Source: a virus | Lineage: Duplodnaviria > Caudoviricetes | IMG/VR virus record: IMGVR_UViG_3300044617_002031 | Span: 1-62,493 of that record | Reading direction: 5' to 3' (one strand) | Length of the DNA: 62,493 nucleotides | Shown: piece by piece, positions 4,185-48,684 of the stretch | Numbering within the stretch: the stretch's first letter is position 1 | How the letters are laid out: each line of letters begins with the position of its first letter | The notes under the pieces: generated by a model | The model's input: the letters and a program-made list of their open reading frames with translations, nothing else | Database searches by the model: none | Told to the model about the DNA's origin: nothing | Made by a program: the position numbers and the translations under genes

Positions 4185-6704
4185 ATGTCTGATCTCACTA
4201 TTCCGGCATTGGTTTTAGAATTTCAAATGCGATCGCTCTATGTACAACAGCTTCTCCAAGCAGAAGCCGGAATTAAAGAATATGATGCAAGTTGGCTAAA
4301 GAACACTGGGGAAGTAATGCGGGACGCGACCGGGAAGTTTGCTAAGAAGGGAGCAACCGTTGATACCCCACAACCGCAGGCGGGAGTTATGCCCGGAACG
4401 ATGCAGATGCCAGGTTTAGGTCAGGCGCAACAAATGACCTGGACGGCAATGGATATGTTGGAAAATGGTTCTGAGATTACTGGTGATTTAATTCAAGGAT
4501 TAGTTCAAGATCCTGGTTTCCGACAACGGGCGGGACTTGTTGCGGGATTGGCGGGGGCAAAGGCATTAGAGAAAATTTTAGAGAAAAGCAAAATTGATCC
4601 TCGGCTTGAAGCTAAATTAAATGATTTTATTGCGGAAGCGACTCAAAAATTAGCGGATGAATATGGGGACGATAAAGACCCGTTTGCTCAAGCTATTCGG
4701 ACTGCGGGAACAGATGAGCCACCGCAGGGAGTTCCCTTTCAACAACGGATGGAGTATGACCTCGCTAAATACCAGGCTTATACTGAAGCGTTAAAAAATC
4801 CCAAGAAATATGACAAGAAGAAGGAATTGATGGGGAAAGCGGTTAAAGCATCAATCCCCGTTGTGGCTTATTTGGGATTAACATTGGGGCCAGAGGTCAT
4901 AATTGGTTTGGTTATGAAGGAATCGCTTGAGGCTATTTTAGTCTCGGCTGCGGTCGGGCAGGCGGTTTCCTTTGGCGCGAACAAGGCAATGGATAAAGCC
5001 AATATTGAAAATCAATGGGTTCGCGCAGGGGTTGATCTGGCTGTGGGGATTGCTGCGGGTGGTTTGTTGGCTTCTAACAAGCATTTCAAGGTTCTGAGTA
5101 AAGCTGATCAAGCATCTCGGACGGGTAAAAAAGTTGCGGAAACCGCGATTAAGGCTACTGAGCAAGGGACTTTTTACGACAAACTTTCTAAACCCGTTAA
5201 AGAGTTCATGGATGCCCGTTCTAAGGATATTCTGGATTCTGTTAAACCGTTACAGGATATCAAACCCACTGGAATTAAACTTCCAGAGATGAAGGATATA
5301 GGATGGATTTCTAAGGGTAAATTCTTTCCAGATAGTGTGCTGTCTATTCCTAAAGAATTGCGATCGCTTCCCCCGAATTTCAGCAAGAATTTATTACTTA
5401 AAGGAACCGATTGGAATAACTTAAAAAGCGCATCTCCTAATTTTATTGATAACATCTTATTTGACGGGGCGGAAATCCTTCAATCCATCAGCAAAGGAAA
5501 AAATCAAGTCATGTCAGCCGTAGTTGACGGTGTTAAACGGAACATTCTAGTCGCCAAGGGTAAGGCTTCTAGGGGAATTAATGCTGCGGGTGAAGCAATT
5601 GAAGATGCTTTTTTGTGGTTGTTACCGAAAGGGATGGATGCTTTGGATGCGTCAGCTACTTGGGTTGATGATGTGGCTAGAAGAATGGATGATATTTATG
5701 AAAATAAAATAAAAACTTTTCGACCCAAGGTTGAACAGGATATTGATAATTTACAACGATCTATATCCGATGGGATTGAGAATCTTAAAATTGATGTCAG
5801 CATGAAAGTTGGCGAGATTGGTCAATCTTTTAATGATGGTTTGGATAGTGCTAAAAAAGCAGGGCAAAAATGGGTTGACGATACAGTTGAAACTCTTGAG
5901 AAGAAAACACAGGTAAACAAGCAATTTGTAAAAGAAGCTGAAGAAAAGGCAGAAAAACGTATTGAGGATATGTTCGATTCGTTAGAAGATTTGTACAAAA
6001 ACAAAATCCAAACTATTAAACCCCGTATCAAGCAAGAGATGGATGACTTAGCAGAACATCTTTCTCAAGAAATTGATAAGTTGAAAATGCCTGATTTGAC
6101 TGCTAAGTTTAAGGGTAAAAAGGCGATCGCGGATCAATGGGCTAAGGATGTTTCCGAGTCTATGGAAACTTTCTATAATAATGAAATTAACAACCTCAAG
6201 TCGAATATCAAGAAGCAAGTCGAGGATTTACAAAAAATTGCTTCCGAGGGAGTTGGTAGTGCAAAAACCAAGGTGCAAGATTACCAAAAGGTTACTAAAC
6301 AATGGTCTGATGATGCTTCTAAAGCTCTTAAAGAGTTATATGAAAATGAAGTTAAGAATTTTCAACCCAATCTTCAAAAAGAAATGGCGGAGTTGAAGTC
6401 TTTGGTGTCTAAACAGGTTGGGAAATTAAAAAAATCAACTTCTTTGACTGCCGAGAATGTCGGTAAATGGGTTGACGATGTTTCGGGTACTCTCAAGAAG
6501 TTGTATAAAGAAAAATCTGCATCCTTAATGCAAGAAGTTAATACAAAAGCCGAGAAATTTAAAAAGGATTTCTCTGACAAATTGAACAAATTCAATACTG
6601 AATTAAATCAAAAAATCGAATCGGTAAAAGATTTAAGTTCACAAGCTCAAGATAAGATATTGTCTGAGTTCGTAAATACCTATATCAATTCGCTTATATT
6701 CTAG
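4185..6704 (+). CDS. Modular virion cargo family member 1; C-terminal apolipoprotein-like amphipathic helical repeats
   Basis: Leader ...QQLLQAEAGIKEYDASWL...RDATGKFAKKG; core EYGDD..AQAIR plus hydrophobic helices; repeats of WVDDV...LYENxIK. Confidence 0.8.
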   Translation: MSDLTIPALVLEFQMRSLYVQQLLQAEAGIKEYDASWLKNTGEVMRDATGKFAKKGATVDTPQPQAGVMPGTMQMPGLGQAQQMTWTAMDMLENGSEITGDLIQGLVQDPGFRQRAGLVAGLAGAKALEKILEKSKIDPRLEAKLNDFIAEATQKLADEYGDDKDPFAQAIRTAGTDEPPQGVPFQQRMEYDLAKYQAYTEALKNPKKYDKKKELMGKAVKASIPVVAYLGLTLGPEVIIGLVMKESLEAILVSAAVGQAVSFGANKAMDKANIENQWVRAGVDLAVGIAAGGLLASNKHFKVLSKADQASRTGKKVAETAIKATEQGTFYDKLSKPVKEFMDARSKDILDSVKPLQDIKPTGIKLPEMKDIGWISKGKFFPDSVLSIPKELRSLPPNFSKNLLLKGTDWNNLKSASPNFIDNILFDGAEILQSISKGKNQVMSAVVDGVKRNILVAKGKASRGINAAGEAIEDAFLWLLPKGMDALDASATWVDDVARRMDDIYENKIKTFRPKVEQDIDNLQRSISDGIENLKIDVSMKVGEIGQSFNDGLDSAKKAGQKWVDDTVETLEKKTQVNKQFVKEAEEKAEKRIEDMFDSLEDLYKNKIQTIKPRIKQEMDDLAEHLSQEIDKLKMPDLTAKFKGKKAIADQWAKDVSESMETFYNNEINNLKSNIKKQVEDLQKIASEGVGSAKTKVQDYQKVTKQWSDDASKALKELYENEVKNFQPNLQKEMAELKSLVSKQVGKLKKSTSLTAENVGKWVDDVSGTLKKLYKEKSASLMQEVNTKAEKFKKDFSDKLNKFNTELNQKIESVKDLSSQAQDKILSEFVNTYINSLIF

Positions 6705-6733: not shown

Positions 6734-9184
6734 CTATTTTCTCTTGATCTTGCTCTCTGCGTTCTTTATAGCAAGATCAAGATTATACTCCTTGATCGCC
6801 AAACTCTTTTTAAGTTTATTTTTCGTATAGGTCGCAAAACTCAAAGAAGATTCTTCTCCTTGATCGGATATGATATCTTCTATTTTTTTAAGATAATCCT
6901 TTATTGATTGTATTTCTTGTTTGTGATTGTCAATATTCTGTTTTCCCAATACTGAGTCTAAATCAACCTCTTTAATATTGTTTTTTAATAATACTTGAAT
7001 ATCTAATCCGAGATATCTTTCTCTGTATATATTCGCCAAAAAAGTATCTATACCTTCTTCATAATTCTTTCTTAGTTTTAAAAATAAAGATAACACTTCT
7101 TTGTCGGATTCTTGGTTTTTCATTAGTTCGTATTCCATTTCGTTTAAACCTATTTTTACCTGCTCTCTTTTTTTGTAAATATCAACAGATTCTCCGTCCA
7201 TTTTTTTAACTATTTCAATGTAATCATCGGAATTGATTTTCCTTTGTTTTTTAAAGAAATTCAATCCAACTTCTTTTAAGTCATCAAACGCTAGGTTGAA
7301 TTTTTTATAGATATATCCTGTACTCATTTCTTCTGTGATTTTTGTAAATTCATTGTATAATTTAAGATCTTTTGTTTCTACATTTTGATCACCCAATATT
7401 CTTGCTAACATCTTTTTTAAAAATGGATCTTCAAAATATTCCATGTGATCTGTAACAGTGTTTAAATACAAATTATTTCTTGGTCTAAGGAAGTTTAGGT
7501 AAACATCATTTTCGGAAAGTATATTCGTAAAATCTTGGGCGGATGTCATTCCAGCAAAAGGACTCGCAATGGTTATATTATTTTTTGTTTTCACTCCCAT
7601 TATTTTTAATATTTCACTGGCTTCTCTTGCTATTAATCCTCCGCCACAATACCCCATTAATGTCACTTCTTTTTCTGGATATTTTTTCTTTAAAGCAGCA
7701 ACTTGAACGGCAAGCGAAATAGCATCCTCGTTATGGAAGTTCTTCATGGTTGCTTTAAAATATTCCCTTCCGGCTTTACCTAGTGCTATCAATTCTGTAT
7801 CTTCTTTGGTTAAATCAGGTGCGAAAATTTTTCTATCGACAAAAGGAAAGAATACCGTCTTTTCAATTTCTTGGTCTTTGCTTCTATTTAATGTTAAAGC
7901 AATTAACTTGGACTGAGCTTTGTCTGTGTCTCCTGCCCCGCCAAGTGTAAATACAATATGATTGGATTCATCTAAATCTCTTAATACGTTGTTTTTTTTC
8001 AACTCTATTTTTTCAATTGCTTTACCACTAACAATATTTTCTCTCACATAATTATCAAAATTCGCAATAAAATCATCAACCCGTGATTCAGCTATTTTCG
8101 CAGATCTGTGAAATCCCAGTCTATAAATACCCCGAACATCCAAAGCTCCCGAAGTTGCTGCGGTTCCCACCAATAAATCAACTCCAATTCTTGCAATTGG
8201 ATTATCAACTTCCGCTTTATCCATTACCTTATTTGCTGCAAAACTCCAGAATTGTCCTACCGCAGCATTGGTTAAAATAATTGCTAAATTATCACCCATA
8301 AACATCCCTATCCCAATTTCCGGTGCTAAAGTTGCCCCCAAAAACATAGCAATGGGAATCGTCATTGCCGCAGCTTTTCCCATCACCTGAACGAACGGAG
8401 GTTTGTCGGGCATATTATTCAGGTCATCTAACATTTTGTTATAATCGTACCCAACTTTATTAAATGCCCGAAGCAAATCCTTCCCTAATTCCTTGGGATC
8501 TCCCCCTCGCAAATTCATTAAATCTTCAGCCAGTTCCTTGTAAGGGTCTGGCTTAATTGCGTTAGGTAGTTCGGGGTGAAGTTCTTCCCACATATCGGCA
8601 AGCCTATCCCTAGCTTCTTGAGCATCAACCCCAAACATCAAATCAAGAAGTTTGTCGGTAAATTCGGGATTTGTTTCAACCAATTTATCCAATCCTTTAG
8701 AAGCCAATTCAACTAATTCACTAGAAACCTCAAGTTTCTTCTCGGCAATATCAGTTTTAACGTCCTCAACCTTTTGCTCAACCGCTTTTTGAACATTTTC
8801 CTTAACCTGTTCAGGATTCTGTGCTTGCTCCCTAATCGCCAATAACTTATTGACAATTTCCCGCTTCAAATCCTGAGCTTCCTGATCAACATTCTGGGTT
8901 ACATTTTGAACCTGTTGTTGAATTTGCTGCGGTTGAGGAATAGAAACTTGAGGAACTTGTAATTGTGGCATTTGCATCCCTGGCTGTACAGGAACAGGCT
9001 GTTGCGGAACATCTACCGTTGTCCCTTTCTTGGCAAACTTCCCGGTCGCGTCCCGCATCACCTGTTTGGCTTCCGGCAACCAATCCGCCTCGTATTCCTT
9101 AATTCCGGCTTCTGCTGCAATTCGGACTCGCAGTAATTGAGCTTGGGCTTGTAATAATTCGCATAATCTAGCTGTGTCTGACAT
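6734..9184 (-). CDS. Cargo family member 2; alpha/beta hydrolase (lipase-like) domain
   Basis: Family leader; VFTLGGAG, VTLMGYCGGG nucleophile elbow, ITIASPF, SEND, TDHMEY. Confidence 0.75.
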   Translation of the reverse strand: MSDTARLCELLQAQAQLLRVRIAAEAGIKEYEADWLPEAKQVMRDATGKFAKKGTTVDVPQQPVPVQPGMQMPQLQVPQVSIPQPQQIQQQVQNVTQNVDQEAQDLKREIVNKLLAIREQAQNPEQVKENVQKAVEQKVEDVKTDIAEKKLEVSSELVELASKGLDKLVETNPEFTDKLLDLMFGVDAQEARDRLADMWEELHPELPNAIKPDPYKELAEDLMNLRGGDPKELGKDLLRAFNKVGYDYNKMLDDLNNMPDKPPFVQVMGKAAAMTIPIAMFLGATLAPEIGIGMFMGDNLAIILTNAAVGQFWSFAANKVMDKAEVDNPIARIGVDLLVGTAATSGALDVRGIYRLGFHRSAKIAESRVDDFIANFDNYVRENIVSGKAIEKIELKKNNVLRDLDESNHIVFTLGGAGDTDKAQSKLIALTLNRSKDQEIEKTVFFPFVDRKIFAPDLTKEDTELIALGKAGREYFKATMKNFHNEDAISLAVQVAALKKKYPEKEVTLMGYCGGGLIAREASEILKIMGVKTKNNITIASPFAGMTSAQDFTNILSENDVYLNFLRPRNNLYLNTVTDHMEYFEDPFLKKMLARILGDQNVETKDLKLYNEFTKITEEMSTGYIYKKFNLAFDDLKEVGLNFFKKQRKINSDDYIEIVKKMDGESVDIYKKREQVKIGLNEMEYELMKNQESDKEVLSLFLKLRKNYEEGIDTFLANIYRERYLGLDIQVLLKNNIKEVDLDSVLGKQNIDNHKQEIQSIKDYLKKIEDIISDQGEESSLSFATYTKNKLKKSLAIKEYNLDLAIKNAESKIKRK

Positions 9185-9217: not shown

Positions 9218-10972
9218 TTATTTATGATTTTTCTTTTTCAAATCTTCCTTCATTTGTTTTTCTGTTTGTTTGAGTGACTTTAGAATTTCTTCTTGTTCTT
9301 TTTTCTCCTGAATTTCAAATTCTTTTTTGCGTATTCTGGATTTTTGAATGTTATCGGGCGTTACATCGTCAACATATTTAATCGTTTTAGAATCAATATC
9401 CAAATGATATCTATTCATTAACATTGCGGCTTCACGATAGGATTCTTCTATACCGTCAAAAATTTCCCCCCATCCTTTGCTGTAAAAATCAGAGAGACTT
9501 TGACTAACCTCGTCAAATATTTTATCTCTCTCACTGGTTATCTGTGACAATTCTTTTTTTTCTAAATCCTTTAAGTAATTCAACCCTTTTTTTCTTGACT
9601 TCATTTTCCCTAGTCTTTCTATAGACTCTTTTTTTGCCACCTCTCGTAAGCTAGTGTCCACATCATCCATACTTTTCTTGAATTTTTTAAACTGATCGCC
9701 ATGAGTTAGATTTTGTATGTGTTTTTCTTTTGCCTCTAGTTTTTTGTAAACTGAATTAATTTTTTCCACTACAGGATTAAATTCGGTTTTAGGATCACGT
9801 TCTATAGCTCTAATTACATTACGAAGTTCTTCTTTTGCTAAGGAAATGTGAGATATAGCCATCTGTCCAGTACCTTCGGTCAACTTATAATACAGAAGAC
9901 TCATTTTATTGGTATCAGAGGCAGCTTCAAATGTTTGCCCTATAACTGTTGATATCGACATAGGGCCTAACTTCTCTTGTTCTTTTAATACATCAGGATT
10001 AACGAAACGTAACCATCCATCTTTTACTTCTTCGACACTTACAGAAGCAAGATCCTTGGCTTTTTTAGCTCGAACAGTCTTGAATCCCATTACAGCCGTT
10101 CCGCCCGTTAAAGCACCAACAGCAAGCCCAATTCCCAGTCTAGCAACAGGATTATCAACTTCTAATTTATCCATTGCTTTATCCGCAGCAAATACCCCCG
10201 CTTCACCCGCAGCAAAGGCAATCAATGATTCCGTCAAAGAAAAAGCCGCACCTGCAAAAATCGCTTCTGGAATAATCGTAATACCGAGTCCTATAGCAAT
10301 TGGAACGGATGCAGCAATAACCTTCTGAGCAAGTGACTCAACTGACGCAGGTTCTTCTTTTTCATAAACTTCGGGACTACCTAAAGCATCTTCATAAGCC
10401 TTGTATTTAGCAACCTGTAGCTCCAAACGTTGTTGCAAATTATCACCAGGGGGAAGATTACCGTGCTTACGAATAGCCTGAGCCATTGCACCCCCGTCAT
10501 CCCCATATTCCTTAATTAAATCCTGATTAAATTTATTAATGTAGCTATCTAGTTTCTTAGTAAATTCAGGATTAACCTTTGCGGCTTCAGCTAATCGTTT
10601 AATTGCTTGCGCTCCGGTTTGACCCACTTCTAATCCCGCCCGTCTACGGAAATCCTTGTCTGTCAGCAATTTCTTCAGCATCTCAACAGAAACTTCACCC
10701 CCTTCCAATAACAGGGAAGTGACTTTTTTTGTATCTGAAATTGCTTGACCTACTTTTTCCTGCACCGTTGGGGGTTGCCCTGGTGTTGAGGTTTCTGATG
10801 TTGCTGATGAAGTCCCTTTCTTGGCAAACTTCCCACTTCCATCCCGAACTACGGTATCGGTATTCTTTAGCCAATCCGCCTTATATTCTTTCGTCCCTTC
10901 TGCTGCAATTCGGATTCGCAACAGTTGAGCATGGGCTTGTAGCAATTCACATAATCTAGCTGTGTCTGACAT
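9218..10972 (-). CDS. Cargo family member 3; helical/coiled-coil C-terminus
   Basis: Family leader and core; first ~175 aa nearly identical to member 5. Confidence 0.8.
   Translation of the reverse strand: MSDTARLCELLQAHAQLLRIRIAAEGTKEYKADWLKNTDTVVRDGSGKFAKKGTSSATSETSTPGQPPTVQEKVGQAISDTKKVTSLLLEGGEVSVEMLKKLLTDKDFRRRAGLEVGQTGAQAIKRLAEAAKVNPEFTKKLDSYINKFNQDLIKEYGDDGGAMAQAIRKHGNLPPGDNLQQRLELQVAKYKAYEDALGSPEVYEKEEPASVESLAQKVIAASVPIAIGLGITIIPEAIFAGAAFSLTESLIAFAAGEAGVFAADKAMDKLEVDNPVARLGIGLAVGALTGGTAVMGFKTVRAKKAKDLASVSVEEVKDGWLRFVNPDVLKEQEKLGPMSISTVIGQTFEAASDTNKMSLLYYKLTEGTGQMAISHISLAKEELRNVIRAIERDPKTEFNPVVEKINSVYKKLEAKEKHIQNLTHGDQFKKFKKSMDDVDTSLREVAKKESIERLGKMKSRKKGLNYLKDLEKKELSQITSERDKIFDEVSQSLSDFYSKGWGEIFDGIEESYREAAMLMNRYHLDIDSKTIKYVDDVTPDNIQKSRIRKKEFEIQEKKEQEEILKSLKQTEKQMKEDLKKKNHK
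10445..10972. repeat. ~530-bp direct repeat shared with 14376-14903
   Basis: Near-identical DNA at constant offset 3931. Confidence 0.95.
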
Positions 10973-10976
10973 TTGT

Positions 10977-13304
10977 TTAAACCTTTGTTTTGGAAATAAA
11001 ATTTAACTTGCTTTGTTCAGTCGAGATTCGCTGAACATTACCCTCCTCCTTAACCATCTTCTCCTCAGATTGGGAGAGGATTTTTTTATAGTTATTGGGT
11101 AACTCGACCTCAGACCGAAACACCATAACTTTACTAACAAAATCAAATTGGTTTTCTGCCCCGATCGCACTCCTAATCTTCGGCATCAACCATCCCAACT
11201 TATCCCTCAATTGAGGATACTTAACTTGATAAGGTTTAGGCGCAACATCAATCACCGTCCCAAAAGCCCGATTCTGAACACAGGTTTTACCCCGATTCAA
11301 AATAATAATTGTATTGTCTTGGGGAACCGCGATCGCATCATAACCCAACAAACTAGCCAACCGACCCGGATCTTCCAACACTAACTTAATATCTTTAGGA
11401 ATATCTTTTTCCTTAAAGTGCTTCATCAACGACTCATGGTAAGTCGTCAACTTCTCAAGAGTAATATTTTTAGCATCCTGAGCTAAACTCATTCGCATCA
11501 CACAAGACCCTAAAAACACTCGGTCTACCGCTAAAAAGATGCTTCTCTCTTTGTAGTAATTGATAGATGCTCCCGCCGATGCAGCAACTTCCGGTTTCCC
11601 TTTCCCTACTACCCCATAACAACCATTCCCAAATATTCCAGCATCCGTAATAAAGAAGCCATTTTTATATTGTTCAAACAATTCAATTCCCGTATATTCG
11701 GTTTGACTCCGTTTTCTGGGATTGAACCAATTCTTAAACCCTTTTAATATTTCAGTTTCCTTAGACTTTATCCTTTGATCTAATTCTTCCTGAGAAACAA
11801 TCGTTGGCAACTCATTGAGTCCCATGATCCGATTCATGGCATCCTGCAAGTAATCACTCTGCTTGAAAAACTTAGAGTCAACGTTTTCATCTTCCTTGGA
11901 TAGAAGTTGGGAAAATTCGTTAATCTCTTTGCTGAATTTTAATAATTTATTCTGGTCTAACTTTTCAAAGAAAGGAACAATTTTATCTTTTTCTGGATTA
12001 AAGGACTTAAATTGATCTAATAAATCTTTGTATTTTTTAGCGACATCCTTAGCAAACAAATTCAGGGTTTCATTTAATCCGAATACCTGTGACTTGTATT
12101 CATCAATTTTCTCGTAAATCTCCAATTCCAAATCACTCAAAAATTCCTCGAACTGCTTAACTTGCTTCTCCTGACGGGATACCTGTTGGTTAACCCGCTC
12201 CCGCATCTTTTGGTTAGCTTGAGCGATCGCAATTCTTTTCTCTGTCTCCTCAGATTCCTTCTGATCCTGTTCAGTAATAATCCGTTGAGCTTCCTTTTTT
12301 AAGTCCTCATGGGATTGTTTGGCTACCTTTTTGGCATTGGCGGGAACAGGAATGGGGGCTTCTACCTGAGTGAGACTGGAAATATCATTACGAATTTGAC
12401 CAAATAAGGAAGGGTCTAACCCTAGTATTTTCCCCATCTTTTGATCGGACAAAGTTTTATCTTTATCGGTAAAATCCTTACTCAATTTGACATTGCCAAC
12501 ATGGGCAACAATTCCCCCCGCCAGAAATCCCACCACTAATTTAGAAGCATCCCGTACTGTTGGGTCTGATACCTGCACTACTTCACTGGACTCATGTTCG
12601 AGGGTATCAACTGCTTCCGCAATTACAGACGAGTCCACAATCCCATCCCACCGAACCCCCTTTTCATAAATCAAGGGAATTAGGGTTTCGGGGGGAAGTG
12701 CGATCGCTAATCCAACACCAACAGGAACAGCAGAAGCCATTGTTTGACCAAGTAGCCGTTGCTTGTTTTCATAAAATTCAGATTGTTGAATTGCTTGGCA
12801 ATAGGCGTAATAACGTGCGATCGCAAATTCAAGTTTTTGGTCTAACGGTGCGGTAGTAGGTAATACGACAACTCCCTTACGAATAGCTTGAGCAATAGGA
12901 TTAGTAGTATCCCCGTATTGGTCAGACAATTCCTTAGTTTCTATATCCAACCAATCATCAAACGCTTGAGTTAGCTCAGGGTTATCGCCTACCGACAACA
13001 TAACCCGTTTGATTAATTTCGCCATCGGTTGATTTTCTTCTAATTTGCAGCGATCGCAGAACATCGGGTCAGCAACCAATTTCCGCAACGATTCAGTAGT
13101 AATTTCTTCCCCTTGTTGAATCAGGGTATCGAAATCGTTAACCTGTTGCATCTGGGCTTGTTGCTGTTGTTGTATCTGCGCTTGCTGCGGGTCAACAGGT
13201 GGCATTCCTGGTTGTGGGGGTGCGGGGGGTGGTGGCATCATCGCGTTCGCCAGTATTAACAGGTGCGATTGGAATTTAGCGATTAATAGGAGTTGTTCGT
13301 TCAT
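10977..13304 (-). CDS. Cargo family member 4 (divergent leader); C-terminal ADP-ribosyltransferase-like domain
   Basis: Core QYGDTTNPIAQAIRK...KLEF...ASAVPVG; C-terminal LPTIVS, GIFGNGCY, DPGRLASLLGYDAI, IIILNR, as recalled from phage-head-associated ART-like domains. Confidence 0.65.
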   Translation of the reverse strand: MNEQLLLIAKFQSHLLILANAMMPPPPAPPQPGMPPVDPQQAQIQQQQQAQMQQVNDFDTLIQQGEEITTESLRKLVADPMFCDRCKLEENQPMAKLIKRVMLSVGDNPELTQAFDDWLDIETKELSDQYGDTTNPIAQAIRKGVVVLPTTAPLDQKLEFAIARYYAYCQAIQQSEFYENKQRLLGQTMASAVPVGVGLAIALPPETLIPLIYEKGVRWDGIVDSSVIAEAVDTLEHESSEVVQVSDPTVRDASKLVVGFLAGGIVAHVGNVKLSKDFTDKDKTLSDQKMGKILGLDPSLFGQIRNDISSLTQVEAPIPVPANAKKVAKQSHEDLKKEAQRIITEQDQKESEETEKRIAIAQANQKMRERVNQQVSRQEKQVKQFEEFLSDLELEIYEKIDEYKSQVFGLNETLNLFAKDVAKKYKDLLDQFKSFNPEKDKIVPFFEKLDQNKLLKFSKEINEFSQLLSKEDENVDSKFFKQSDYLQDAMNRIMGLNELPTIVSQEELDQRIKSKETEILKGFKNWFNPRKRSQTEYTGIELFEQYKNGFFITDAGIFGNGCYGVVGKGKPEVAASAGASINYYKERSIFLAVDRVFLGSCVMRMSLAQDAKNITLEKLTTYHESLMKHFKEKDIPKDIKLVLEDPGRLASLLGYDAIAVPQDNTIIILNRGKTCVQNRAFGTVIDVAPKPYQVKYPQLRDKLGWLMPKIRSAIGAENQFDFVSKVMVFRSEVELPNNYKKILSQSEEKMVKEEGNVQRISTEQSKLNFISKTKV

Positions 13305-19226: not shown

Positions 19227-19236
19227 ATTCAATGCA

Positions 19237-38398: not shown

Positions 38399-38587
38399 TC
38401 AGGGTTTAGTTTCTTCTGGATTTTCGGTTATTTTTTGTTTTTGACTTTGCTTGTCAATTTGAGATCGATCTTTGAAGATTAATTTCCCAGAAGCATCCCT
38501 GTAAAATGCAAGATCTTCTTCTTGAGACAAACTACCATCTTCATTAAAAAATGCAGGGCTGTCACCGCGATCCGAAATACTACTCAT
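38399..38587 (-). CDS. 62-aa protein coupled to the ART gene (immunity/partner candidate)
   Basis: ATGA overlap with the stop of 38584-40650. Confidence 0.55.
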   Translation of the reverse strand: MSSISDRGDSPAFFNEDGSLSQEEDLAFYRDASGKLIFKDRSQIDKQSQKQKITENPEETKP

Positions 38588-40650
38588 GTTGCACTATGCT
38601 CCTTCAATTCAACGATAAGAGTTTCTTTCATTATATCTTTATTTGTTAAATGCTTTAATTTTTGGGTGTATATTTTTACCACTTCAAATTTTGTTGCAGG
38701 TCGAAATAAAACTTCCGTCTCTCTCATTTCATTAAATTGTGTAATATCCCTACCTAAAGATTTTTCCGAAGGATGAATTAAATATTTTAATTCTCTAGCT
38801 CCATCAGCAAATCCTCCCGTCCCCCATGATTCAGGAGTTGTCGATAAAAATCCTCTATTGCATATAATTTTTCCTTCTTGCAGCCTATCCAATGGATTTT
38901 GTTTGTGACCATAAGTAGATTCGTATCTAGCCAAAGGTCGATCAGGGGAGTATCGAGGTATTTTATTTAAGGCAGAAATTAATATATTAATGTACTCATC
39001 AACATCTTTTATATGTTCCATTCCTATGTTTAATTCAGGTTTAAAATTTTCATCAAGATAATCTTTTGTTATTAAACGCCTTAAATATTCGTTCGCAAAA
39101 CCACATATCCTTGAGTCGGTATAACGGGCAATTGCCGTTCTCTCAATATCGCTGATTTGTATTATTTGCTCTCTACCCAAGAAGTCTTTATATAGAAATT
39201 CTGCATTTTCATTTGTGTAAGTGTAACTAGGATAATCAGGAACAGCTATTGTTTTTGGTATAAAACGGAAAGAAGCATTCTCATTTTTTTTGTACATCAG
39301 GTGATGAAATTTCTCGAAGTATTGCTTTTCGTCTTCAATAATTTCTTGTAAAGGATAACCGGATTTCCCCGACCACTTACTAGCTAGTCGTTCAGTTTCT
39401 TCCTTGAAATCCTGCTTAACTTTTTCCCGTGCTTGGCGCTCGGCTTCGTTTTTGAGTTTTCCTACCGCTTGATTCTCGGCTTGCATTTTAGCCAACTGTT
39501 CTGTTTTTTCTTTAATTAGTTTCTCCGCTTTTTCCTTGGCTTCTTGTTTTGCTTTTTCCTTTGCCAATTGTGCTGCTTCTTGTTTTTTTATATATTTAGC
39601 TTCTTCTAGTGCTTCTTTTTTAGCTTTTTCATCGGCTAATTGTTTAGCCTTTTCCTTTGCTTGATACTCAGCTTCTTCTTTTGCTAACTTCTCTTTTGCT
39701 AACCGCTCAATTTCTTCCTTAGCTAATCGCTCGGCTTCTTCATCTGCTAACCGTTTAGCTTCTTCCTTGGCTAATCGTTCAACTTCCAACCGTTCAATAT
39801 TCTTGATTTTATTATTAACACCTGTCACCAATCCCCCCGCTAAAATCCCAGCAACTATACTGGCTCCAATACGAAGTGCCGGATTATTAATCTCAAGTTT
39901 ATCCATGCCCTTCTGAACCGCGAAATCCGCAGCTTCCCCAAGCGCAACAGAACTTAATACAGTAGCCCAATTTACGCTTTGCGCTAGAAAGAGGGGAATA
40001 GCAACTTCAAATCCCAGGGCAATTGCCAAACTGACACCAATAGGAATTGAAGCAGCAGCGGCTTTGCCGATTATTTCATCTCGTTTACTGAAATCTTCGG
40101 GATTTTTTAATGCTTCCTGATATGCAGTATATTGAGCAACCCTAAATTCCATCTTTTCGTTGAAACTAGCATCTTTGGGGGGTTGTGCTAATTTATTGTT
40201 ACGAATTGCCTGTGCCATCGGGTTTTTATCATCGCCGTATTGATCGGCAAATTCCTTGGTCGCGTTAGCAATCCATTCATCCAATTTCTCGGTTAATTTA
40301 GGATTCAATCTGGCTTGGGTTGCCAGATTACTAATTAATTTCGCCATCGGTAAACCCGCAGCAAGTCCCGCCCGTTTTCTGAACTCAGGATCTTTAATTA
40401 GGGATTGAATTGTATCGCCTGTTAAGTCAAATCCTTGTTTCAAGATAGCAGTTGTATCTTGAACAGATTGCTTAATAGACGAACCTTTTGATGCAAACCG
40501 TCCCGTCGTATCCCTGGTGACAACTTTGGCATTTTTTAACCAATCTGCTTCGTATTCCTTGGCAGCTTCCGCCTGTAACAATCTCTGGACAATTAAACTT
40601 CGGGACTGGAACTCTAGGATTAAACACAATAATTCGGTATTATTTTGCAT
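38584..40650 (-). CDS. Cargo family member 7; C-terminal R-S-E ADP-ribosyltransferase (VIP2/Alt-like)
   Basis: Family leader and core; EAK-rich linker; AIARYT...NEYLR, ALNKIP, LARY, GFLSTT, ETEVLF...KFEV. Confidence 0.88.
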   Translation of the reverse strand: MQNNTELLCLILEFQSRSLIVQRLLQAEAAKEYEADWLKNAKVVTRDTTGRFASKGSSIKQSVQDTTAILKQGFDLTGDTIQSLIKDPEFRKRAGLAAGLPMAKLISNLATQARLNPKLTEKLDEWIANATKEFADQYGDDKNPMAQAIRNNKLAQPPKDASFNEKMEFRVAQYTAYQEALKNPEDFSKRDEIIGKAAAASIPIGVSLAIALGFEVAIPLFLAQSVNWATVLSSVALGEAADFAVQKGMDKLEINNPALRIGASIVAGILAGGLVTGVNNKIKNIERLEVERLAKEEAKRLADEEAERLAKEEIERLAKEKLAKEEAEYQAKEKAKQLADEKAKKEALEEAKYIKKQEAAQLAKEKAKQEAKEKAEKLIKEKTEQLAKMQAENQAVGKLKNEAERQAREKVKQDFKEETERLASKWSGKSGYPLQEIIEDEKQYFEKFHHLMYKKNENASFRFIPKTIAVPDYPSYTYTNENAEFLYKDFLGREQIIQISDIERTAIARYTDSRICGFANEYLRRLITKDYLDENFKPELNIGMEHIKDVDEYINILISALNKIPRYSPDRPLARYESTYGHKQNPLDRLQEGKIICNRGFLSTTPESWGTGGFADGARELKYLIHPSEKSLGRDITQFNEMRETEVLFRPATKFEVVKIYTQKLKHLTNKDIMKETLIVELKEHSAT
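39730..40650. repeat. ~0.9-kb inverted repeat with 46363-47290
   Basis: N-terminal ~300 aa of members 7 and 8 nearly identical, on opposite strands; boundaries approximate. Confidence 0.9.
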
Positions 40651-40736: not shown

Positions 40737-41318
40737 TTAGAAGCGATCTTGTATGTATGTAGTTATGGCAGTAGCCTGTACAATTTCAGCATCATCATAA
40801 CTGATCGACATCTCAAGAGTTGCCATGTCTTCCCCGTCCATGTCGAAGTCAGGTGCAGTTAGCGACTTAGGAAAACAGCCCGCTAATTTAAGTTTAACAG
40901 GTAGAACACCTATCTCTTGAAATAACCGATGGTACACGATTACTGCATTTTTTTTGTAATCGGGATCAATCCCTATGATTAGACCTGCGGTTGTTGCGTC
41001 ACCCTGTAAAACACCTGTCAAACCACCTTGGCCCGAGATTGCTGATACAGATGTTGTAGTTGCTCTGTCAATACATCTTTGAAACCAATTAATGTATTCA
41101 TAGCGAGTGTCGTTATCGGCAAAGTCAAGGGTGATATTAAATTCACCACTATTAACTCGACCAATCGGAATAACAGTTTTGTCGGGTCGCTCTGCGGTAT
41201 TGATCTCAATCGTAATATTATCGCGGGTGATAATATTTGCAGAATTTGTCATTCCTTCAACAATAAACCGTTGCTTATTTTGAGGGAAAGGATTTTTTGA
41301 AAGTGTTGCTTTTCTCAT
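40737..41318 (-). CDS. Tail tube protein (T4 gp19-like)
   Basis: Follows the sheath; GRV..GE..IT, W...C, GCFP..L..PDFD..E...LEM.ISYD. Confidence 0.85.
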   Translation of the reverse strand: MRKATLSKNPFPQNKQRFIVEGMTNSANIITRDNITIEINTAERPDKTVIPIGRVNSGEFNITLDFADNDTRYEYINWFQRCIDRATTTSVSAISGQGGLTGVLQGDATTAGLIIGIDPDYKKNAVIVYHRLFQEIGVLPVKLKLAGCFPKSLTAPDFDMDGEDMATLEMSISYDDAEIVQATAITTYIQDRF

Positions 41319-41331: not shown

Positions 41332-44322
41332 CTAAGTTGTTACAGAAGAACCAAACCGAGAAACCAAAGATTCGGGGCCAATTTCTAATTCAAGCCTTTC
41401 TAAGATTCCAGTTGGGAACCAGGAATAAAAAAGCTTCAATTTTCCATTGACGATTTGAAGAAATACATCAACTCCCTCTTGGCCCACAGAAGGGACTGTG
41501 GCAAATCTTACAGCTTGATCAAATGTCAAATATCGACTGTAGACTCCTTTTTGGTATTCTTCCTTAGCAAATCCCTCTAACGCCAGCAATAACCGATCCG
41601 ACAACTCAGGTTGATTGGGTCGGAATAATTGTTGCAATAAAGGTTGGGCTTCCAAAAAAATTCTGACGTAGTTACTCTGCGTTCTTCGGACATGAAGAAA
41701 GGTATAAATTGAATTTAGAGCAGGGCAACGACTACCAAAAATAATCACTCGCCCACTAAAATATTTAATCGGTTGAATCCCTGCTAAATTCAAAATTCCT
41801 TCTTCCCTGGGATTGGGAGTGAAAGGTAATTTAGAAATTCGCCCTAATGTCGCGCTCAAACCAGCGGCAACATAATGATATCCCCGATATTGAGAAGCCA
41901 TGGCACTTTCCAATCCCATGATGTCTCCAGATATGGAGATCATGCGATCGCCTCTGGAACGAGGGTTGGGAATAAAGGCGTAGCTAGGGAAGGCAACGGA
42001 AAGGTGATCACTGCGCCCTAAATCTAAATTGATATAGGATTCAGCAACGGCGACATTATTAATCAAGGCAGGAATTTCAGCCCGGAACTCGAATGCAACG
42101 GATTCAGCATAAGCAATCCCCGCTTTCTGCACGGATAAATCATTAACGCCAGGAATTGCGAAGCGAACCAAGCCCACGTTCAACCCATAAACAGCTTGCT
42201 CAAGGAAATTGAGGTCTAAGTCAAGGTATCGCGTGAAGTTATAGGGCTGCATCATCGAGGAGTCGCCGTCGTATCCTCCTTCAAAATACTGAGGGAAAGA
42301 AACGATAAAGCGATCGCCTTGACTGGCATAACGAGTTAAATCAATCCCCGAATCAAAAGAAAGATAACCTGATTTGGTGAGCTTACTTCCAGCAGTTAGA
42401 TTGATAGAGAATCCTTGAGTCAAGGACAGTTCAGCATCACTGATGACCTGACGAACAGTTCGGATTTCACCAGCAGGAGAAACAACCAAATCCCCAGCAG
42501 CAACAACAGAACGAAAAGCAGTCCCCGATCCTGTTACAACAGACCCCGTGGTAGAAACGGTTCCCGCTAGAATAACAGGGGATTTAGCTTGCTTAACTCG
42601 GAAGGCGTTTCTGGCATAGCGATAGGGATTGGGATAGATGTAATTCCCAACACTGGCTTGATAATCAAAATCCCCAACGGTATAAATACGTTGTTGGGTT
42701 AAGGATAAAATAGTCCCACTGCCATTAGTAGGTCGGACATCATTTGACATCGCGGTTGTGTAGCTTGCCGTACTCCCATTCCACAATGATTTAGCTCGAA
42801 CCCAAGACAAGTAATTCTCGGTTCCCGTTCGGTAGGCAACATTGGTATTGTTAACCAGGGTTTCAACAAATAAAGAATCGCTGGGATCTAAAGAAGCATC
42901 TGCAATAGATACGACGAGAGAGTTATTGAACCGGATTTGTAGACTAAAATGGGTTTCGGGATAGGCCGTACCCTGCCCAATTTCTACACTTAACCCAGTC
43001 TTGTCGGGAGGAATCAGGGAAATTTTAGCTACTTGGCTTTGTTTGGCTAGTTCAGCATCAGCGAAACCACCATAAAAAGGTTTGGCAATTTTAAATTGAT
43101 CTGCCTGAACTTCGGTAACAATTGCCCCATCTCCACGACGATTGGGGTCAATAATTTTTTCCCCTGGCAAAAGTTCATCTAACAAATCACCGTCAACAAC
43201 ATCTACCCAGTAATTGTCTAAGTAAGCAACCGTTCCAACACTGATATCGGACTCAAACCCAGACTCCAGTAACAAGGAAGTGTCACTAACCACACTAGCT
43301 ACTGTTCGGACAACTTCGATTCCATTTACCAAACAGTAAAGTTTGTCACCTGGAGCAACTTCCACTAGGAAGGTAGTATTATTTCCAGCAACTTCTAAAT
43401 TATCTTTTTCCAGAATTGTTGCTGTAACACTATCAATGATAAATGGTGATTCAATCGTTAGAGATGTATTAGAAGTAATTGAGGTAACTCGCCGAGATTC
43501 ACCCGCGTAGTAGACTGGATCTCCAATTTTCAGTTCACTAGAAAATTGAGTTCCAACCCCAACAATTATAGTCCCGTTGATTGTTACAGTTCCCAATAAG
43601 GAAATCAATCTTTGGAATCCAATTGTCCCCGCCAGGTTTTTATGACGAGAATAAGTTGCCAATCCAGACAGGGTTAATGGCCCAGACACACCATCTGCGA
43701 ATAGATCGTATTGGGAACCAATCGTAAAAACAACTTCTCCGCTTATCGGGTTTGAAGCGGTGTTAGCGATCACCTGATAAGTTTTATTGCTTCCCGAAAA
43801 TTCGATATTTGCATCGACTAATTCGTTGGCAAAAATACCTGGTGCAACAATCGTAAAAGTTTTCGCTGTCGCAACAACAACAGTCGAAAAAGGCACGATT
43901 TTACGATACCCACCCCATCGACCTTGGTTCGCGGCTTCCAACTCTAAAATTTCCGTCCCTAACCGATTTTTGACAACGATTTTAGCAGGACGAGCATTTT
44001 CTAGCTCAACCCGCGTAATCCATGTCATAGCACCGCTTCCAGCACTATTAAAAAATCCATCAATTGCATCAGGACAAAGATGACTGGCATCAGGATATAA
44101 ATGCCACGATGAATCTTTTGGATCTCCCGCAATTTGTAAATACTGCTCTTTAGAAAGATAGGGAATTGCGACCCCCATAGGGCCACGCTTCTGAACTCCA
44201 AAAAAAGCTGTTGTGCCGTATCTCGAATCAATTACGATTTGATTCCCTGAACGTTCGATAACAGCCAGGCCTGCCGCACCAGCAGGAGGGCCAAATACAC
44301 GCACAGATTGTAAATCTGCCAT
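41332..44322 (-). CDS. Contractile tail sheath protein with inserted beta domains
   Basis: TAFFG...RGP, A.N.G.WG, FEGGYDG, AFP, LN..GI.PI, IFG.R, LHVRR, FRPN. Confidence 0.9.
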   Translation of the reverse strand: MADLQSVRVFGPPAGAAGLAVIERSGNQIVIDSRYGTTAFFGVQKRGPMGVAIPYLSKEQYLQIAGDPKDSSWHLYPDASHLCPDAIDGFFNSAGSGAMTWITRVELENARPAKIVVKNRLGTEILELEAANQGRWGGYRKIVPFSTVVVATAKTFTIVAPGIFANELVDANIEFSGSNKTYQVIANTASNPISGEVVFTIGSQYDLFADGVSGPLTLSGLATYSRHKNLAGTIGFQRLISLLGTVTINGTIIVGVGTQFSSELKIGDPVYYAGESRRVTSITSNTSLTIESPFIIDSVTATILEKDNLEVAGNNTTFLVEVAPGDKLYCLVNGIEVVRTVASVVSDTSLLLESGFESDISVGTVAYLDNYWVDVVDGDLLDELLPGEKIIDPNRRGDGAIVTEVQADQFKIAKPFYGGFADAELAKQSQVAKISLIPPDKTGLSVEIGQGTAYPETHFSLQIRFNNSLVVSIADASLDPSDSLFVETLVNNTNVAYRTGTENYLSWVRAKSLWNGSTASYTTAMSNDVRPTNGSGTILSLTQQRIYTVGDFDYQASVGNYIYPNPYRYARNAFRVKQAKSPVILAGTVSTTGSVVTGSGTAFRSVVAAGDLVVSPAGEIRTVRQVISDAELSLTQGFSINLTAGSKLTKSGYLSFDSGIDLTRYASQGDRFIVSFPQYFEGGYDGDSSMMQPYNFTRYLDLDLNFLEQAVYGLNVGLVRFAIPGVNDLSVQKAGIAYAESVAFEFRAEIPALINNVAVAESYINLDLGRSDHLSVAFPSYAFIPNPRSRGDRMISISGDIMGLESAMASQYRGYHYVAAGLSATLGRISKLPFTPNPREEGILNLAGIQPIKYFSGRVIIFGSRCPALNSIYTFLHVRRTQSNYVRIFLEAQPLLQQLFRPNQPELSDRLLLALEGFAKEEYQKGVYSRYLTFDQAVRFATVPSVGQEGVDVFLQIVNGKLKLFYSWFPTGILERLELEIGPESLVSRFGSSVTT

Positions 44323-46362: not shown

Positions 46363-48684
46363 ATGCAAAATAATACCGAACTGTTGTGTTTGATTTTGGA
46401 ATTTCAGTCTCGAAGCTTGATTGTACAAGGATTGTTACAAGCGGAAGCTGCTAAAGAGTACAAGGCGGATTGGCTAAAAAATGCTGATACCGTTGTCAGG
46501 GACAGGGGTGGGAAGTTCGCTAAAAAAGGAATGTCCATCGCTCAACCAATTCAAGATGCAACTGCTATTTTAAAGCAAGGGTTTGATCTAACGGGTGATA
46601 CGATTCAATCTCTAGTCAAAGATCCTGAGTTCAGAAAGAGGGCGGGACTTGCTGCGGGTTTGCCTATGGCGAAACTGATTTCTAATTTGGCAACCCAAGC
46701 CAGATTGAATCCTAAATTAACCGAGAAATTGGATGAATGGATTGCCAATGCCACCAAAGAATTTGCCGATCAATATGGCGATGATAAAAACCCGATGGCA
46801 CAGGCAATTCGTAACAATAAGTTAGCACAACCCCCCAAAGATGCTAGTTTCAACGAAAAGATGGAATTTAGGGTTGCTCAATATACTGCATATCAGGAGG
46901 CATTAAAAAATCCCGAAGATTTCAGTAAGCGCGATGAAATTATAGGGAAAGCCGCTGCTGCTGCGATTCCTATTGGTGTCAGTTTGGCAATTGCATTAGG
47001 GTTTGAAGTTGCTATTCCCCTGTTTTTAGCGCAAAGTGTGAACTGGGCCACTGTATTAAGTTCTGTTGCACTTGGGGAAGCTGCTGATTTTGCTGTACAA
47101 AAGGGCATGGATAAATTAGAAATTAATAATCCGGCACTTCGTATTGGAGCCAGTATGGTTGCTGGGATTTTAGCGGGGGGACTGGTTACAGGTGTTAATA
47201 ATAAAATCAAGAATATTGAACGACTGGAAGTTGAGCGATTAGCAAATGAAGAAGCTAAACGGTTGGCCGATGAAGAAGCCGAGCGATTAACTAAAGAGAG
47301 GGTGGAGAAACTAGCTAAAGAGAAAATTGAACATGAATCCAAAAAAGAATATGAGAGATTGATCAAAGAAGAATCCGATCGAATAGAAAAAGAGTATGAA
47401 GAATTGTTCAAGAAAAAAGTACCTACTCCAAAAAGCACTCAAGAATTACTTGAGGATAAAGCCGAGCGATTAGCTAAATTACAAAAACCATCATTATCGG
47501 TTCAAAAGGTATTGAATGATATGGGTTTAGATTTTCCAGAAATCTTAAAGGCTATTCACAACATTAATCACTCTCAAGATGCACGGAATACTTTACTTGT
47601 AGATATAGAAAAAACTCTTGAAAACATACATCAATTACAAAAAGATATAGAATCATTAGATATTTCCGCAGACATTCACAACATACAAAAAGAAAGGTAC
47701 AGAGAATTAATGAAGAATAAAGAGAAATTGTTAGAAAAAAAAGCGCAACTAAGAATTGCAGAAGGAAAAGGGTACTCTCCAGAGAAAAGATTACTCGAAG
47801 CGTCTGAAATCATGGAAAAAGAGGGGATAGATTCACCGCGATACCTGTGGCGTAAAGCTGTGTTACAAGCAGAAGTGAAATATGGTAAGTATTTGGACGA
47901 AATTCAAAATGGAGTAGAAAATGGGTACGCTAAATTAATGAAATCCTTAAAAAAAGATCATAACTATAATGCTGAATGTATTTTTGTTGAAAACGATCCC
48001 GGTACACAAAATATCATGGCTCTTGAATTATCTATAGATGTAAAAAACAGTATTAATGATATAGTGAGTGATTTTCAGGATATAGTTAGTATTCCATTGA
48101 AAATCCATATTGGATCGCGTGATCTTGGTATATATGCGATACAGGGTAAAAGAGCTACGTCAAACATCACCAATCATTATTTTGATAATATAAATATATT
48201 AAAAGATTTTCCTTTTTTAGAAGAAGAAAGTAATGGTTTTGTTCATGTAGGTGGTGTTTTTCGTCGCAATCCTAATGAAGTGTATTATAGTAGTGGTTAC
48301 AATGTCCTCTGCGATCCAGATACCCAGATCAAAGAATCGTTATGGCATGAGATGGGGCATCTTGTTGAGGCAAGTATTTTAAAATCCCAAAAAACAGCGC
48401 AATCTTTTTTGAAAGATAGAGAATCAGAATCTTGGTTAATTGGTGATATAGATGAACTAGAAGAATCTACTTTTTTTAGTGGTAACATCATAAAAGCAAT
48501 TGATCATTTCTTTGATGGTTACATGGGGACTCAGTATATGGATAATGGAAGTAATACAGTATTATTGACGGAGTTGATATCTAGTGGTTTTGAAGGTTTA
48601 TCTTCTCCTTGGATGGCAAAATCTATGACGATTCGAGATAGAGAAAGTTTATTATATGCAATAGCCGTATCGGAGATGAAATAA
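46363..48684 (+). CDS. Cargo family member 8; C-terminal zincin-like metallopeptidase
   Basis: MQNNTELL leader as in member 7; LWHEMGHLVE; downstream Y.G..Y...TELISSGFE supplies a candidate third ligand. Confidence 0.8.
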   Translation: MQNNTELLCLILEFQSRSLIVQGLLQAEAAKEYKADWLKNADTVVRDRGGKFAKKGMSIAQPIQDATAILKQGFDLTGDTIQSLVKDPEFRKRAGLAAGLPMAKLISNLATQARLNPKLTEKLDEWIANATKEFADQYGDDKNPMAQAIRNNKLAQPPKDASFNEKMEFRVAQYTAYQEALKNPEDFSKRDEIIGKAAAAAIPIGVSLAIALGFEVAIPLFLAQSVNWATVLSSVALGEAADFAVQKGMDKLEINNPALRIGASMVAGILAGGLVTGVNNKIKNIERLEVERLANEEAKRLADEEAERLTKERVEKLAKEKIEHESKKEYERLIKEESDRIEKEYEELFKKKVPTPKSTQELLEDKAERLAKLQKPSLSVQKVLNDMGLDFPEILKAIHNINHSQDARNTLLVDIEKTLENIHQLQKDIESLDISADIHNIQKERYRELMKNKEKLLEKKAQLRIAEGKGYSPEKRLLEASEIMEKEGIDSPRYLWRKAVLQAEVKYGKYLDEIQNGVENGYAKLMKSLKKDHNYNAECIFVENDPGTQNIMALELSIDVKNSINDIVSDFQDIVSIPLKIHIGSRDLGIYAIQGKRATSNITNHYFDNINILKDFPFLEEESNGFVHVGGVFRRNPNEVYYSSGYNVLCDPDTQIKESLWHEMGHLVEASILKSQKTAQSFLKDRESESWLIGDIDELEESTFFSGNIIKAIDHFFDGYMGTQYMDNGSNTVLLTELISSGFEGLSSPWMAKSMTIRDRESLLYAIAVSEMK

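Follow-up and report, generated by a model that had tools for sequence, protein, structure and literature searches.

Why would a phage carry eight versions of one gene, each with a different end? This question is raised by the record IMGVR_UViG_3300044617_002031, a linear sequence of 62,493 bases with a CheckV completeness of 46%, which was analysed in its entirety and is referred to below as the window. The phage is uncultured, comes from freshwater and is of the myovirus type (contractile tail), as portal, capsid, sheath-like, tube and tape measure genes are all present in the window. Eight of its genes, here called M1 to M8, encode proteins of 292-839 residues that have all or part of an N-terminal module (N-module) in common. 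Together they take up 15,918 nt, i.e., 15.9 of the 62.5 kb or about a quarter of the record. A preliminary description of this DNA had listed the same eight open reading frames (ORFs), all of which are present, and had put the space that they occupy at about 16 kb, which agrees with the summed lengths. We suggest, with a confidence somewhat better than even, that the eight genes are a polymorphic set of virion-delivered effectors and that the N-module is a new loading tag combined with a membrane-insertion module.

The N-module covers about 300 residues. It starts with an amphipathic helix and a hairpin motif, KEYxAxWL(5)VxRDxxG(K/R)FA(K/S)K, which together form the leader. A variable P/Q/T-rich spacer follows, and then a helical core with the motifs DPxFRxRAGL and YGDD..P.AQAIR and two to three hydrophobic helices with conserved P-E, G-E and glycine-rich stretches. 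A profile built from seven N-modules matches exactly eight places in the record and no others, and seven members score between E 1e-112 and 1e-150 over about 270-330 profile positions. M1 (4185..6704, + strand; E 1.1e-149) contains the leader, the core and the hydrophobic helices in residues 1-330, followed by a long apolipoprotein-like and coiled-coil C-terminus. M2 (6734..9184, - strand; E 2.7e-124) has the leader, a divergent core with an insertion of about 50 residues, and the hydrophobic helices. M3 (9218..10972, - strand; E 1.4e-150) and M5 (13308..14903, - strand; E 1.4e-145) both have the full N-module and a coiled-coil C-terminus, which in M3 is partly common with M5. Between them lies M4 (10977..13304, - strand), where a leader reduced to the helix and the core (profile positions 57-329) precede a probable ADP-ribosyltransferase (ART) fold domain and a C-terminal tail. 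M6 (14906..15784, - strand) has only the leader, about 65 residues (profile positions 3-69, E 1.7e-25), and then an unrelated region. In M7 (38584..40650, - strand) the leader (40483-40650) is followed by the core and hydrophobic helices (39814-40479), a KE-rich coiled-coil linker and an ART domain at about 38668-39006. Finally, M8 (46363..48684, + strand) combines the N-module with a C-terminus in which WHExGHxxE is found at about 48343-48369. The start codons of two genes are ambiguous (15784 or 15817 for M6, 46363 or 46336 for M8), and the leader alignment favours 15784 and 46363.

The distribution of these parts is as first described. The KEY...FAxKG leader is found in seven members, with M4 as the divergent one that keeps the helix and the core and has no hairpin. 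The YGD...AQAIR motif is found in six, since M2 is divergent there and M6 lacks it. A Kyte-Doolittle analysis (19-residue mean of at least 1.4) detects hydrophobic segments with peaks of 1.6-2.2 in all eight proteins; in seven of them these are the helices of the module, and the single segment in M6 is unrelated.

The comparison of M7 with M8 indicates where the module ends. Their N-modules are 94% identical at the protein level, and the corresponding DNA forms a 983-nt inverted repeat with 86% nucleotide identity. In successive stretches of 30 residues, mostly 29-30 of 30 are identical up to about residue 300, and then only 3 of 30. The nonsynonymous and synonymous substitution rates over the N-module (dN 0.042, dS 0.654, dN/dS 0.06) indicate that it is under strong purifying selection. 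Judged by these alignments, M7 and M8 are old paralogs with a strongly conserved N-module and a sharp recombination boundary in the KE-rich linker.

Relatives outside the window reveal how the parts are combined. The N-module profile was searched against 1,835,955,588 representatives at E<=1e-3, and 165 clusters were found, 98 of them at <=1e-10 and 65 at <=1e-30; an earlier word-seeded search had given 43 proteins. With 165 clusters among so many representatives, the family is rare in the set searched. When the leader and the core are used as separate profiles, 100 of 181 proteins match both, 46 match only the leader and 35 only the core (some of the core-only proteins are fragments). The leader is found within the first ten residues in 114 of 118 representative leaders. 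Four of its positions, W36, R45, G49 and F51, do not vary in any of the 118, and K30, E31, Y32, A34, L37, V43 and D46 are each conserved in 84-95% of them.

The C-termini are far more variable. In 47 fetched loci (numbered with L) together with the window, 90 ORFs contain the module; 55 different complete C-termini occur among them and group into 19 clusters. Pfam scans at E<=1e-5 were made on 93 representatives and then on 54 further proteins (the remaining 45 representatives and nine from the word-seeded search). The first set contains Pkinase (4), ADPrib_exo_Tox (3), Apolipoprotein (2) and one each of GNAT, HipA_2, PI3_PI4_kinase and TPR, and the second contains one each of ADPrib_exo_Tox, Apolipoprotein, DnaJ, HipA_2 and Lipase_3. 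The same payload also occurs on different N-termini. An HExxH C-terminus follows the full module in M8 and L010, just a leader in P0043/L036 and a divergent leader in L039, and the ART-fold C-terminus is found on both M4-type and M7-type N-modules. Leader, core and payload are separable units. The preliminary description had predicted that a profile search would return homologs with diverse C-termini, and this is what was found; invariant C-termini were not seen. From the profile matches, the separability of leader and core and the varied payloads of the homologs, it is clear that a modular family with swappable C-termini exists.

The lineage is common in lakes. The stretch of tube, sheath and M7 genes is present in 20 public runs from 13 studies, which are freshwater, lake, lagoon and 'algae' metagenomes. 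One leader-bearing relative is located on a contig binned with an uncultured cyanobacterium, and four are binned with an Acetobacteraceae metagenome-assembled genome, where the binning is probably wrong. The closest related viral record, L001/G001 (IMG/VR, 58,751 bases), is classed as a provirus by IMG/VR.

What do the C-termini in the window look like? At most one domain is recognisable in each protein. The clearest case is M7, whose C-terminus aligns to the Vibrio Vis ART (PDB 4xzj, E 5e-4) with the motifs in register: ARY/AYR, LSTT/TSTS and ETEVLF/EAEVLF, which stand for Arg, S-T-T and E-x-E, respectively. PF03496 is not matched by M7 at E<=0.1; it is matched by four homologs in the Pfam scans. 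The earlier assignment of an R-S-E ART to M7 is thus borne out by an alignment in which R, S-T-T and E-x-E occur in order.

For M4 an ART-like domain had also been proposed, and here the fold comparison agrees in kind, with scores that are moderate. The last 295 residues, which contain the domain at about 11238-11801, were modelled from nine sequences (predicted local distance difference test, pLDDT, of 61.6). In the VIA-wide comparison the top rows of this model are mostly from the ART superfamily: ParT (Z 7.3), RES (7.3), diphtheria toxin (6.9), MbcT (6.7), and further down exotoxin A (6.2) and PARPs, although Z values of 6-7.5 are a common range for VIA-wide. Foldseek gave nothing at E<=1e-3, and the PDB sequence and profile searches gave chance-level rows only. 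M4 has LKG where its homologs have YRG. The model suggests that the M4 C-terminal domain is probably of the ART fold. A resemblance of M4 to the pre-ejectosome chain 9k3a_B of cyanophage A4 was rejected as too weak (Foldseek E 5.7e-3; Z 7.5 at a root mean square deviation of 5.5), with no sequence relation, and the available part of the cyanophage A4 paper makes no mention of an ART domain.

The remaining C-termini are less well defined. In M8, the HExxH motif on which a peptidase had been proposed stands, as W-H-E-x-G-H-x-x-E is invariant in four of four aligned sequences (M8 and three homologs), but no Pfam family or fold is matched and the PDB sequence rows are at chance level. M2 and three homologs have an invariant Cys (in GYCGGG), Asp and His in the region 7445-7648, in the nucleophile-acid-base order of alpha/beta hydrolases. 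The hydrolase proposed for M2 is consistent with these residues, whereas its Pfam matches (DUF676/Thioesterase/DLH, E 0.018-0.068) are sub-threshold and PDB sequence and profile searches gave chance-level rows only. The apolipoprotein-like repeats ascribed to M1 correspond to a match to Apolipoprotein (PF01442) of 1.1e-11, which is below the Pfam cut-off; M1 also weakly matches two tape-measure PHROGs (9e-5 and 1.6e-3), which the other seven members do not. The C-termini of M3 and M5 have a common coiled-coil tail (C-terminal cluster 0).

Small ORFs that co-vary with the C-terminus follow two of the eight members and several relatives. A 62-residue ORF (38399..38587, - strand), a candidate cognate inhibitor or immunity protein, overlaps the stop of M7 by 4 nt. 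It accompanies the ART C-terminus in the window and in L007 and is absent from L001, where the same slot holds another C-terminus. A second candidate of this kind, an ORF of 105 residues (48686..49003, + strand) with no family match, starts 1 nt after M8. Its homologs of about the same length are found within 1 nt of HExxH members in the window/L008, L010 and L036, despite different slots, and one homolog in L030 follows an M2-type member on the opposite strand. The HExxH member of L039 is followed by a 104-residue ORF. Similarly, the ART-fold members in L011, L013 and L023 are followed by ORFs of 56, 68 and 90 residues, respectively. In M4 itself, a C-terminal tail of about 64-95 residues (about 11037-11228) follows the ART-fold domain, and this tail (10977-11260 of the window) is homologous to the free-standing ORFs L013:1916-2122 and L023:11739-12011; the L011 ORF is not among the matches. 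By this homology, the M4 tail is a candidate inhibitor that was fused in one lineage and is separate in others. The pattern resembles the toxin-plus-immunity cassettes of polymorphic toxin systems (PMC5576092), and would make sense if some payloads must be kept inactive in the cell that produces them.

The genomic positions of the family connect it to the virion genes. Downstream of the major capsid gene (16477..17556, - strand), which is assigned from a weak family match (phrog_752 2.3e-4) and its position between a scaffold-like gene and the effector array, lies a gene for a 154-residue protein (15824-16288, - strand). M6, M5, M4, M3 and M2 come next in the same orientation, at distances of 2-33 nt, which confirms the five members described as directly downstream of the capsid gene. 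The member reported after the tail tube is likewise in place: M7 directly follows the tube gene (40737..41318, - strand; phrog_4542 2e-4; PF06841 2e-4, below cut-off). M8 had been placed between neck genes, an identity that lacks support, as the genes flanking M8 have no family matches in the scans.

These slots recur in relatives. A leader-only member like M6 follows the 154-residue post-capsid gene in four of four loci that hold this gene. The gene next after the tube gene is a family member in five of five distinct loci that have the tube gene (window, L001/L002, L010, L017 and L024), with three kinds of C-terminus in this slot (ART, triple repeat or HExxH domain). In L012 an extra member is found 3 nt after the portal gene, and in L047, whose structural proteins are only 27-41% identical to those of the window, three short members directly follow a homolog of the baseplate-like gene at 36462-38396. 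With members in post-capsid, tube, portal and baseplate-like slots of relatives, the family keeps its association with virion modules even at considerable divergence. More distant leader-bearing genes (L006, L039) are located beside lysis-type or nucleotide-metabolism genes and not beside structural ones.

Has this family been described before? The N-module has no covering Pfam match at E<=0.1, no PHROG match and no PDB sequence match by profile. Among look-alikes in the protein atlas the best score, 0.81, is within noise, and a strict DNA pattern for the hairpin is found in only three other IMG/VR contigs. In the 50,697 deposited phages of INPHARED, no match was obtained at the sensitivities used for the DNA of the structural region, M7, the capsid protein or the leader, a weak sheath match excepted. 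MuF (PF04233/PF06152) is absent from the eight proteins at E<=0.1, as had been noted from the sequence, and from 147 homologs at E<=1e-5. DUF4157, the CIS (contractile injection system) effector core, has no Pfam match in the eight proteins, the 147 homologs or the scanned neighbouring ORFs of the window. The idea that the family is the tape measure was rejected, as a 2864-residue ORF (53807-62401) fills this role, and the N-module profile does not match this protein at E<=1e-3. A likeness by eye between the leader helix (LLQAEAG) and the capsid N-terminus (LLQAGAG) was also rejected, since the helix profile gives the capsid protein E=13. Neither the sequence family nor the two-part N-terminal unit nor the expansion to eight copies in one genome fragment is described in Pfam, PHROGs, PDB, INPHARED or the literature searched, as far as the available parts of the papers go. 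The preliminary description did not recognise the system as described, and this holds for the sequence family. It does not hold for the principle of an N-terminal virion-incorporation unit with a swappable effector, which is already known from MuF toxins, the T4 capsid targeting sequence (CTS) with Alt and the internal proteins (IPs), polyvalent proteins, P1 Dar and CIS effectors.

The closest parallels are found in these known systems. Head-packaged ARTs and MuF fusions occur in myoviruses (PMC9503650), and MuF polymorphic toxins have been described in temperate phages by Jamet et al. 2017 (PMC5576092). Like the MuF toxins, the window family has a conserved and, here putatively, virion-associated N-terminal unit, variable C-termini (ARTs among them), a location in the head module and small ORFs downstream, and the L012 member directly after the portal gene occupies the MuF slot. 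Unlike them, it has no MuF domain, is multi-copy and contains hydrophobic helices, and none of the eight genes is next to the portal gene; they mostly follow the capsid and tube genes. The tag on the T4 proteins IPI-III and Alt has about 10-20 residues and is cut after Glu (L/I-x-E) by gp21. The T4 CTS is, like the leader, a short N-terminal address on otherwise unrelated proteins, one of them an ART, that in T4 are head-loaded and injected (PMC9503650). In contrast, the tag in the window has about 55 residues with a conserved hairpin, its Glu-like position is not invariant, and no T4-type protease was found in the window.

The effectors Tme, Sle1 and Sle2 are similar in build. CIS effectors have a tape-measure-like modular build with swappable functional domains, and Tme and Sle1 are packaged inside the contractile particle of actinobacterial CIS and go to membranes (PMC11126660; PMC13277306). 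Tme, Sle1 and Sle2 have an N-terminal loading-associated part, which in the window family is putative, and, like that family, predicted transmembrane helices, a coiled coil and a swappable C-terminal domain; the genes of Tme and Sle1 are located beside baseplate genes, and one CIS C-terminal type forms a toxin-antitoxin pair (PMC11126660, PMC13277306). They differ in that they carry or associate with DUF4157 and have tape-measure homology, whereas the window family has no DUF4157, its likeness to tape measures consists of the weak M1 matches, and its particle is that of a complete phage, with a separate tape measure. The P1 Dar system (DarA/Hdf on the inner capsid surface) is a set of several myovirus head-internal proteins that leave with the DNA (PMC12810830). 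It differs from the window family, as no sequence relation was detected in the phage collection, which should hold P1, and as the Dar proteins have no common tag with swappable enzymes. The polyvalent proteins of phages and of conjugative elements (Iyer et al. 2017) resemble the window family in the kinds of payload (ART, metallopeptidase motif, hydrolase, kinase), and for them, too, presence in the virion and injection are predicted. They reportedly combine 2-15 effector domains in one polypeptide, whereas in the window every effector has a gene to itself and is tagged separately.

We suggest the following mechanism, in which packaging and injection are inferred from gene position, architecture and analogy. 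The effectors would be made late, together with the head and tail proteins, as their operon position implies. The leader of about 55 residues, an amphipathic helix and a beta-hairpin with the invariant W, R, G and F, would be the address for incorporation into the assembling particle. The procapsid is the more likely loading site, because the head operon contains the majority of the members and the tube already has to accommodate the 2864-residue tape measure. The tail lumen is kept as a possible site because of the conserved post-tube slot, the arrangement in L047 and the likeness to the tape-measure-related CIS effectors. The core with its two to three glycine- and glutamate-containing hydrophobic helices could keep the proteins unfolded or elongated for passage, and on ejection it would insert into the host membrane, as tape-measure and ejection proteins do. 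The C-terminal domain would then act on host targets, through the R-S-E ART, the ART-fold domain, the zincin-like motif or the Cys-Asp-His hydrolase-like region, and in relatives through kinases, HipA-like kinases, GNAT, lipase, J-domain or TPR payloads. C-terminal cassettes would be swapped by recombination at the coiled-coil linker, sometimes together with the small downstream gene, which probably neutralises the enzyme in the producing cell. It can further be speculated, at somewhat less than even chances, that the leader is a portable virion-loading address and the core a self-contained membrane-translocation unit. A widespread freshwater lineage would then deliver a plug-and-play arsenal of host-modifying enzymes with its DNA, and payload-plus-inhibitor cassettes would be exchanged between slots, much as in the polymorphic toxin systems of bacteria.

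Several observations weigh against delivery in the virion. There is no cultured relative. With eight proteins of 32-93 kDa the cargo would be large, no enzyme signature is seen in several C-termini that are coiled coils, and the members M2-M6 of the tandem array have no small downstream ORFs. The AlphaFold2 model of the N-module, all-helical with a small hairpin over KEY...RD, is of low confidence (pLDDT 43.7) and gives no structural support; such a model might be expected of elongated ejection- or tape-measure-like proteins, yet it proves nothing. No prohead protease was identified by family and PDB scans of the window, which is 46% complete, and leader positions 26-28 are A, A or E, and G or A, so an A-E-like position is not invariant. 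As neither a protease nor an invariant site was identified, cleavage of the leader by a prohead protease is pure conjecture. Finally, proteins that simply stay in a membrane of the infected cell would be expected to have such hydrophobic helices just as well. The genes could then encode late, membrane-anchored host-manipulation proteins that are never packaged, with the helices anchored in the cytoplasmic or thylakoid membrane, the enzymes acting there and the leader serving folding, oligomerisation or targeting within the cell. The hydrophobic segments of transmembrane strength in all eight proteins agree with such anchoring, and the leader matches no known packaging signal. We consider this explanation unlikely, as in several divergent relatives the genes lie within the head and tail genes and are closely coupled to them, and leader-only members exist that lack the core. 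Further, ARTs and kinases would be most useful at the start of infection, and products of late genes would then need delivery with the DNA (PMC9503650).

A different possibility is that the proteins are structural, i.e., ejection or conduit proteins related to the tape measure, with the N-module as an envelope channel or a tape-measure extension and the C-termini as accessory lytic or anchoring parts. M7 lies between tube and baseplate genes, where a tape measure is classically found, and this slot is always occupied; hydrophobic helices, a coiled coil and a C-terminal enzyme resemble both tape measures and the Tme/Sle1 effectors (PMC11126660, PMC13277306). The weak tape-measure matches of M1 and the strong purifying selection on the N-module would also fit. 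However, a bona fide tape measure exists and is unmatched by the N-module profile, leader-only members lack the putative channel part, and kinase, GNAT, HipA-like, J-domain and ART payloads act in the cytoplasm and not in the envelope, which makes a conduit quite improbable. It is more improbable still that the proteins are polymorphic toxins of a prophage, paired with immunity genes and directed against bacteria that compete with the lysogen, either after release at lysis or on the surface of particles. The co-varying small ORFs of some cassettes, the related record classed as a provirus and the precedent of the MuF toxins (PMC5576092) point in this direction, but five of the eight members have no candidate immunity gene, TPR, coiled-coil and J-domain payloads are not toxins, and no integrase or host flank was found among those window ORFs that were scanned. 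We favour virion-delivered effectors because they account for a conserved N-terminal tag, the location in head and tail operons, payloads that act in the cytoplasm and inhibitor-like partner ORFs.

The other genes of the window complete the picture of a myovirus. The portal gene (19312..20637, - strand) matches phrog_2662 (1.2e-20) and PF04860 (1.6e-20). Between portal and capsid genes, a 564-residue acidic coiled-coil protein (17556..19250, - strand) is a scaffold and/or protease candidate by position only; it has no Pfam or PHROG match, and its PDB sequence and profile rows are at chance level. The sheath-like protein (996 residues; 41332..44322, - strand) matches the putative tail sheath of Bacillus phage BCD7 over its C-terminal 22% (E 5e-6). 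The tape measure gene is on the - strand (phrog_1272 1.7e-34), and most of the 18 PHROG families that it matches are annotated as tape measure. It is located about 9.5 kb upstream of the sheath gene, with a + strand gene block between. By eye, the tape measure contains an internal duplication, two blocks of long hydrophobic glycine-rich helices that each end with PPGYATGGLV.G.GT.TGDRIHAKLS.GEYVINASSTKANLPLL. Family scans also identified fibre-like genes, a DNA methyltransferase and an endolysin-like gene. One fibre-like gene (23450-24663) contains 327-nt periodic direct repeats with 92% and 85-87% identity, and a 62-nt tandem duplication (97%) at 45111-45234 lies upstream of putative tail-completion genes. 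The ORF cut at the left end of the window (2-1300, - strand) has a 770-residue counterpart in L041 (1684-3996), with a DPBB lytic-transglycosylase-type domain (PF03330 4.7e-25) and an endolysin-like C-terminus. In L047, an ORF with a reverse transcriptase and an HNH domain (13821-15617; phrog_1423 1.1e-95) lies in the tail module right after the three family members; from its sequence it looks like a group II intron protein.

Some features are located close to the effector array. Just upstream of M1 are three paralogous ORFs of about 138-141 residues (1833-2249, 2385-2810 and 3228-3644, + strand), which all match one ORF in L026/L027 and have no Pfam match and one weak match to a PHROG of unannotated function. 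That they are chaperones or inhibitors of the effector family is pure speculation. The 154-residue post-capsid protein and an 81-residue ORF (16298-16543, - strand) overlapping the 3' end of the capsid gene have, by eye, the common motif P.YGWVQR...V.S...A.WL.S.GYC. Between the 154-residue gene and the start of M6 at 15784, an 11-pair stem-loop with a T-rich run (15795-15820, - strand) is a possible attenuator before the array; the promoter and terminator scan of 4000-21000 gave counts at or below the shuffled expectation overall. No tRNA was found by a scan of the window. Contigs of four RNA libraries from three studies cover head and family genes in the region 4000-20700, which does not show transcription and, by depth, allows no ranking of genes; contigs of two of the libraries, X16 and X17, span 14896-16354 and 14896-16362, i.e., the 3' end of the capsid gene, the 154-residue gene and M6.

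Even if the leader loads nothing, the expansion of the family, at about a quarter of the record, is unusually large. If it does load virions, it would be another solution, unrelated in sequence to MuF and the T4 CTS, for having enzymes in the host before transcription. The leader would then allow injected effectors of uncultured phages, together with their inhibitors, to be found by a simple sequence mark, which already picks out 165 clusters, and it would be a candidate tag for loading cargo into phage particles. As the lineage is common in lakes, these effectors may matter for bloom-associated hosts.

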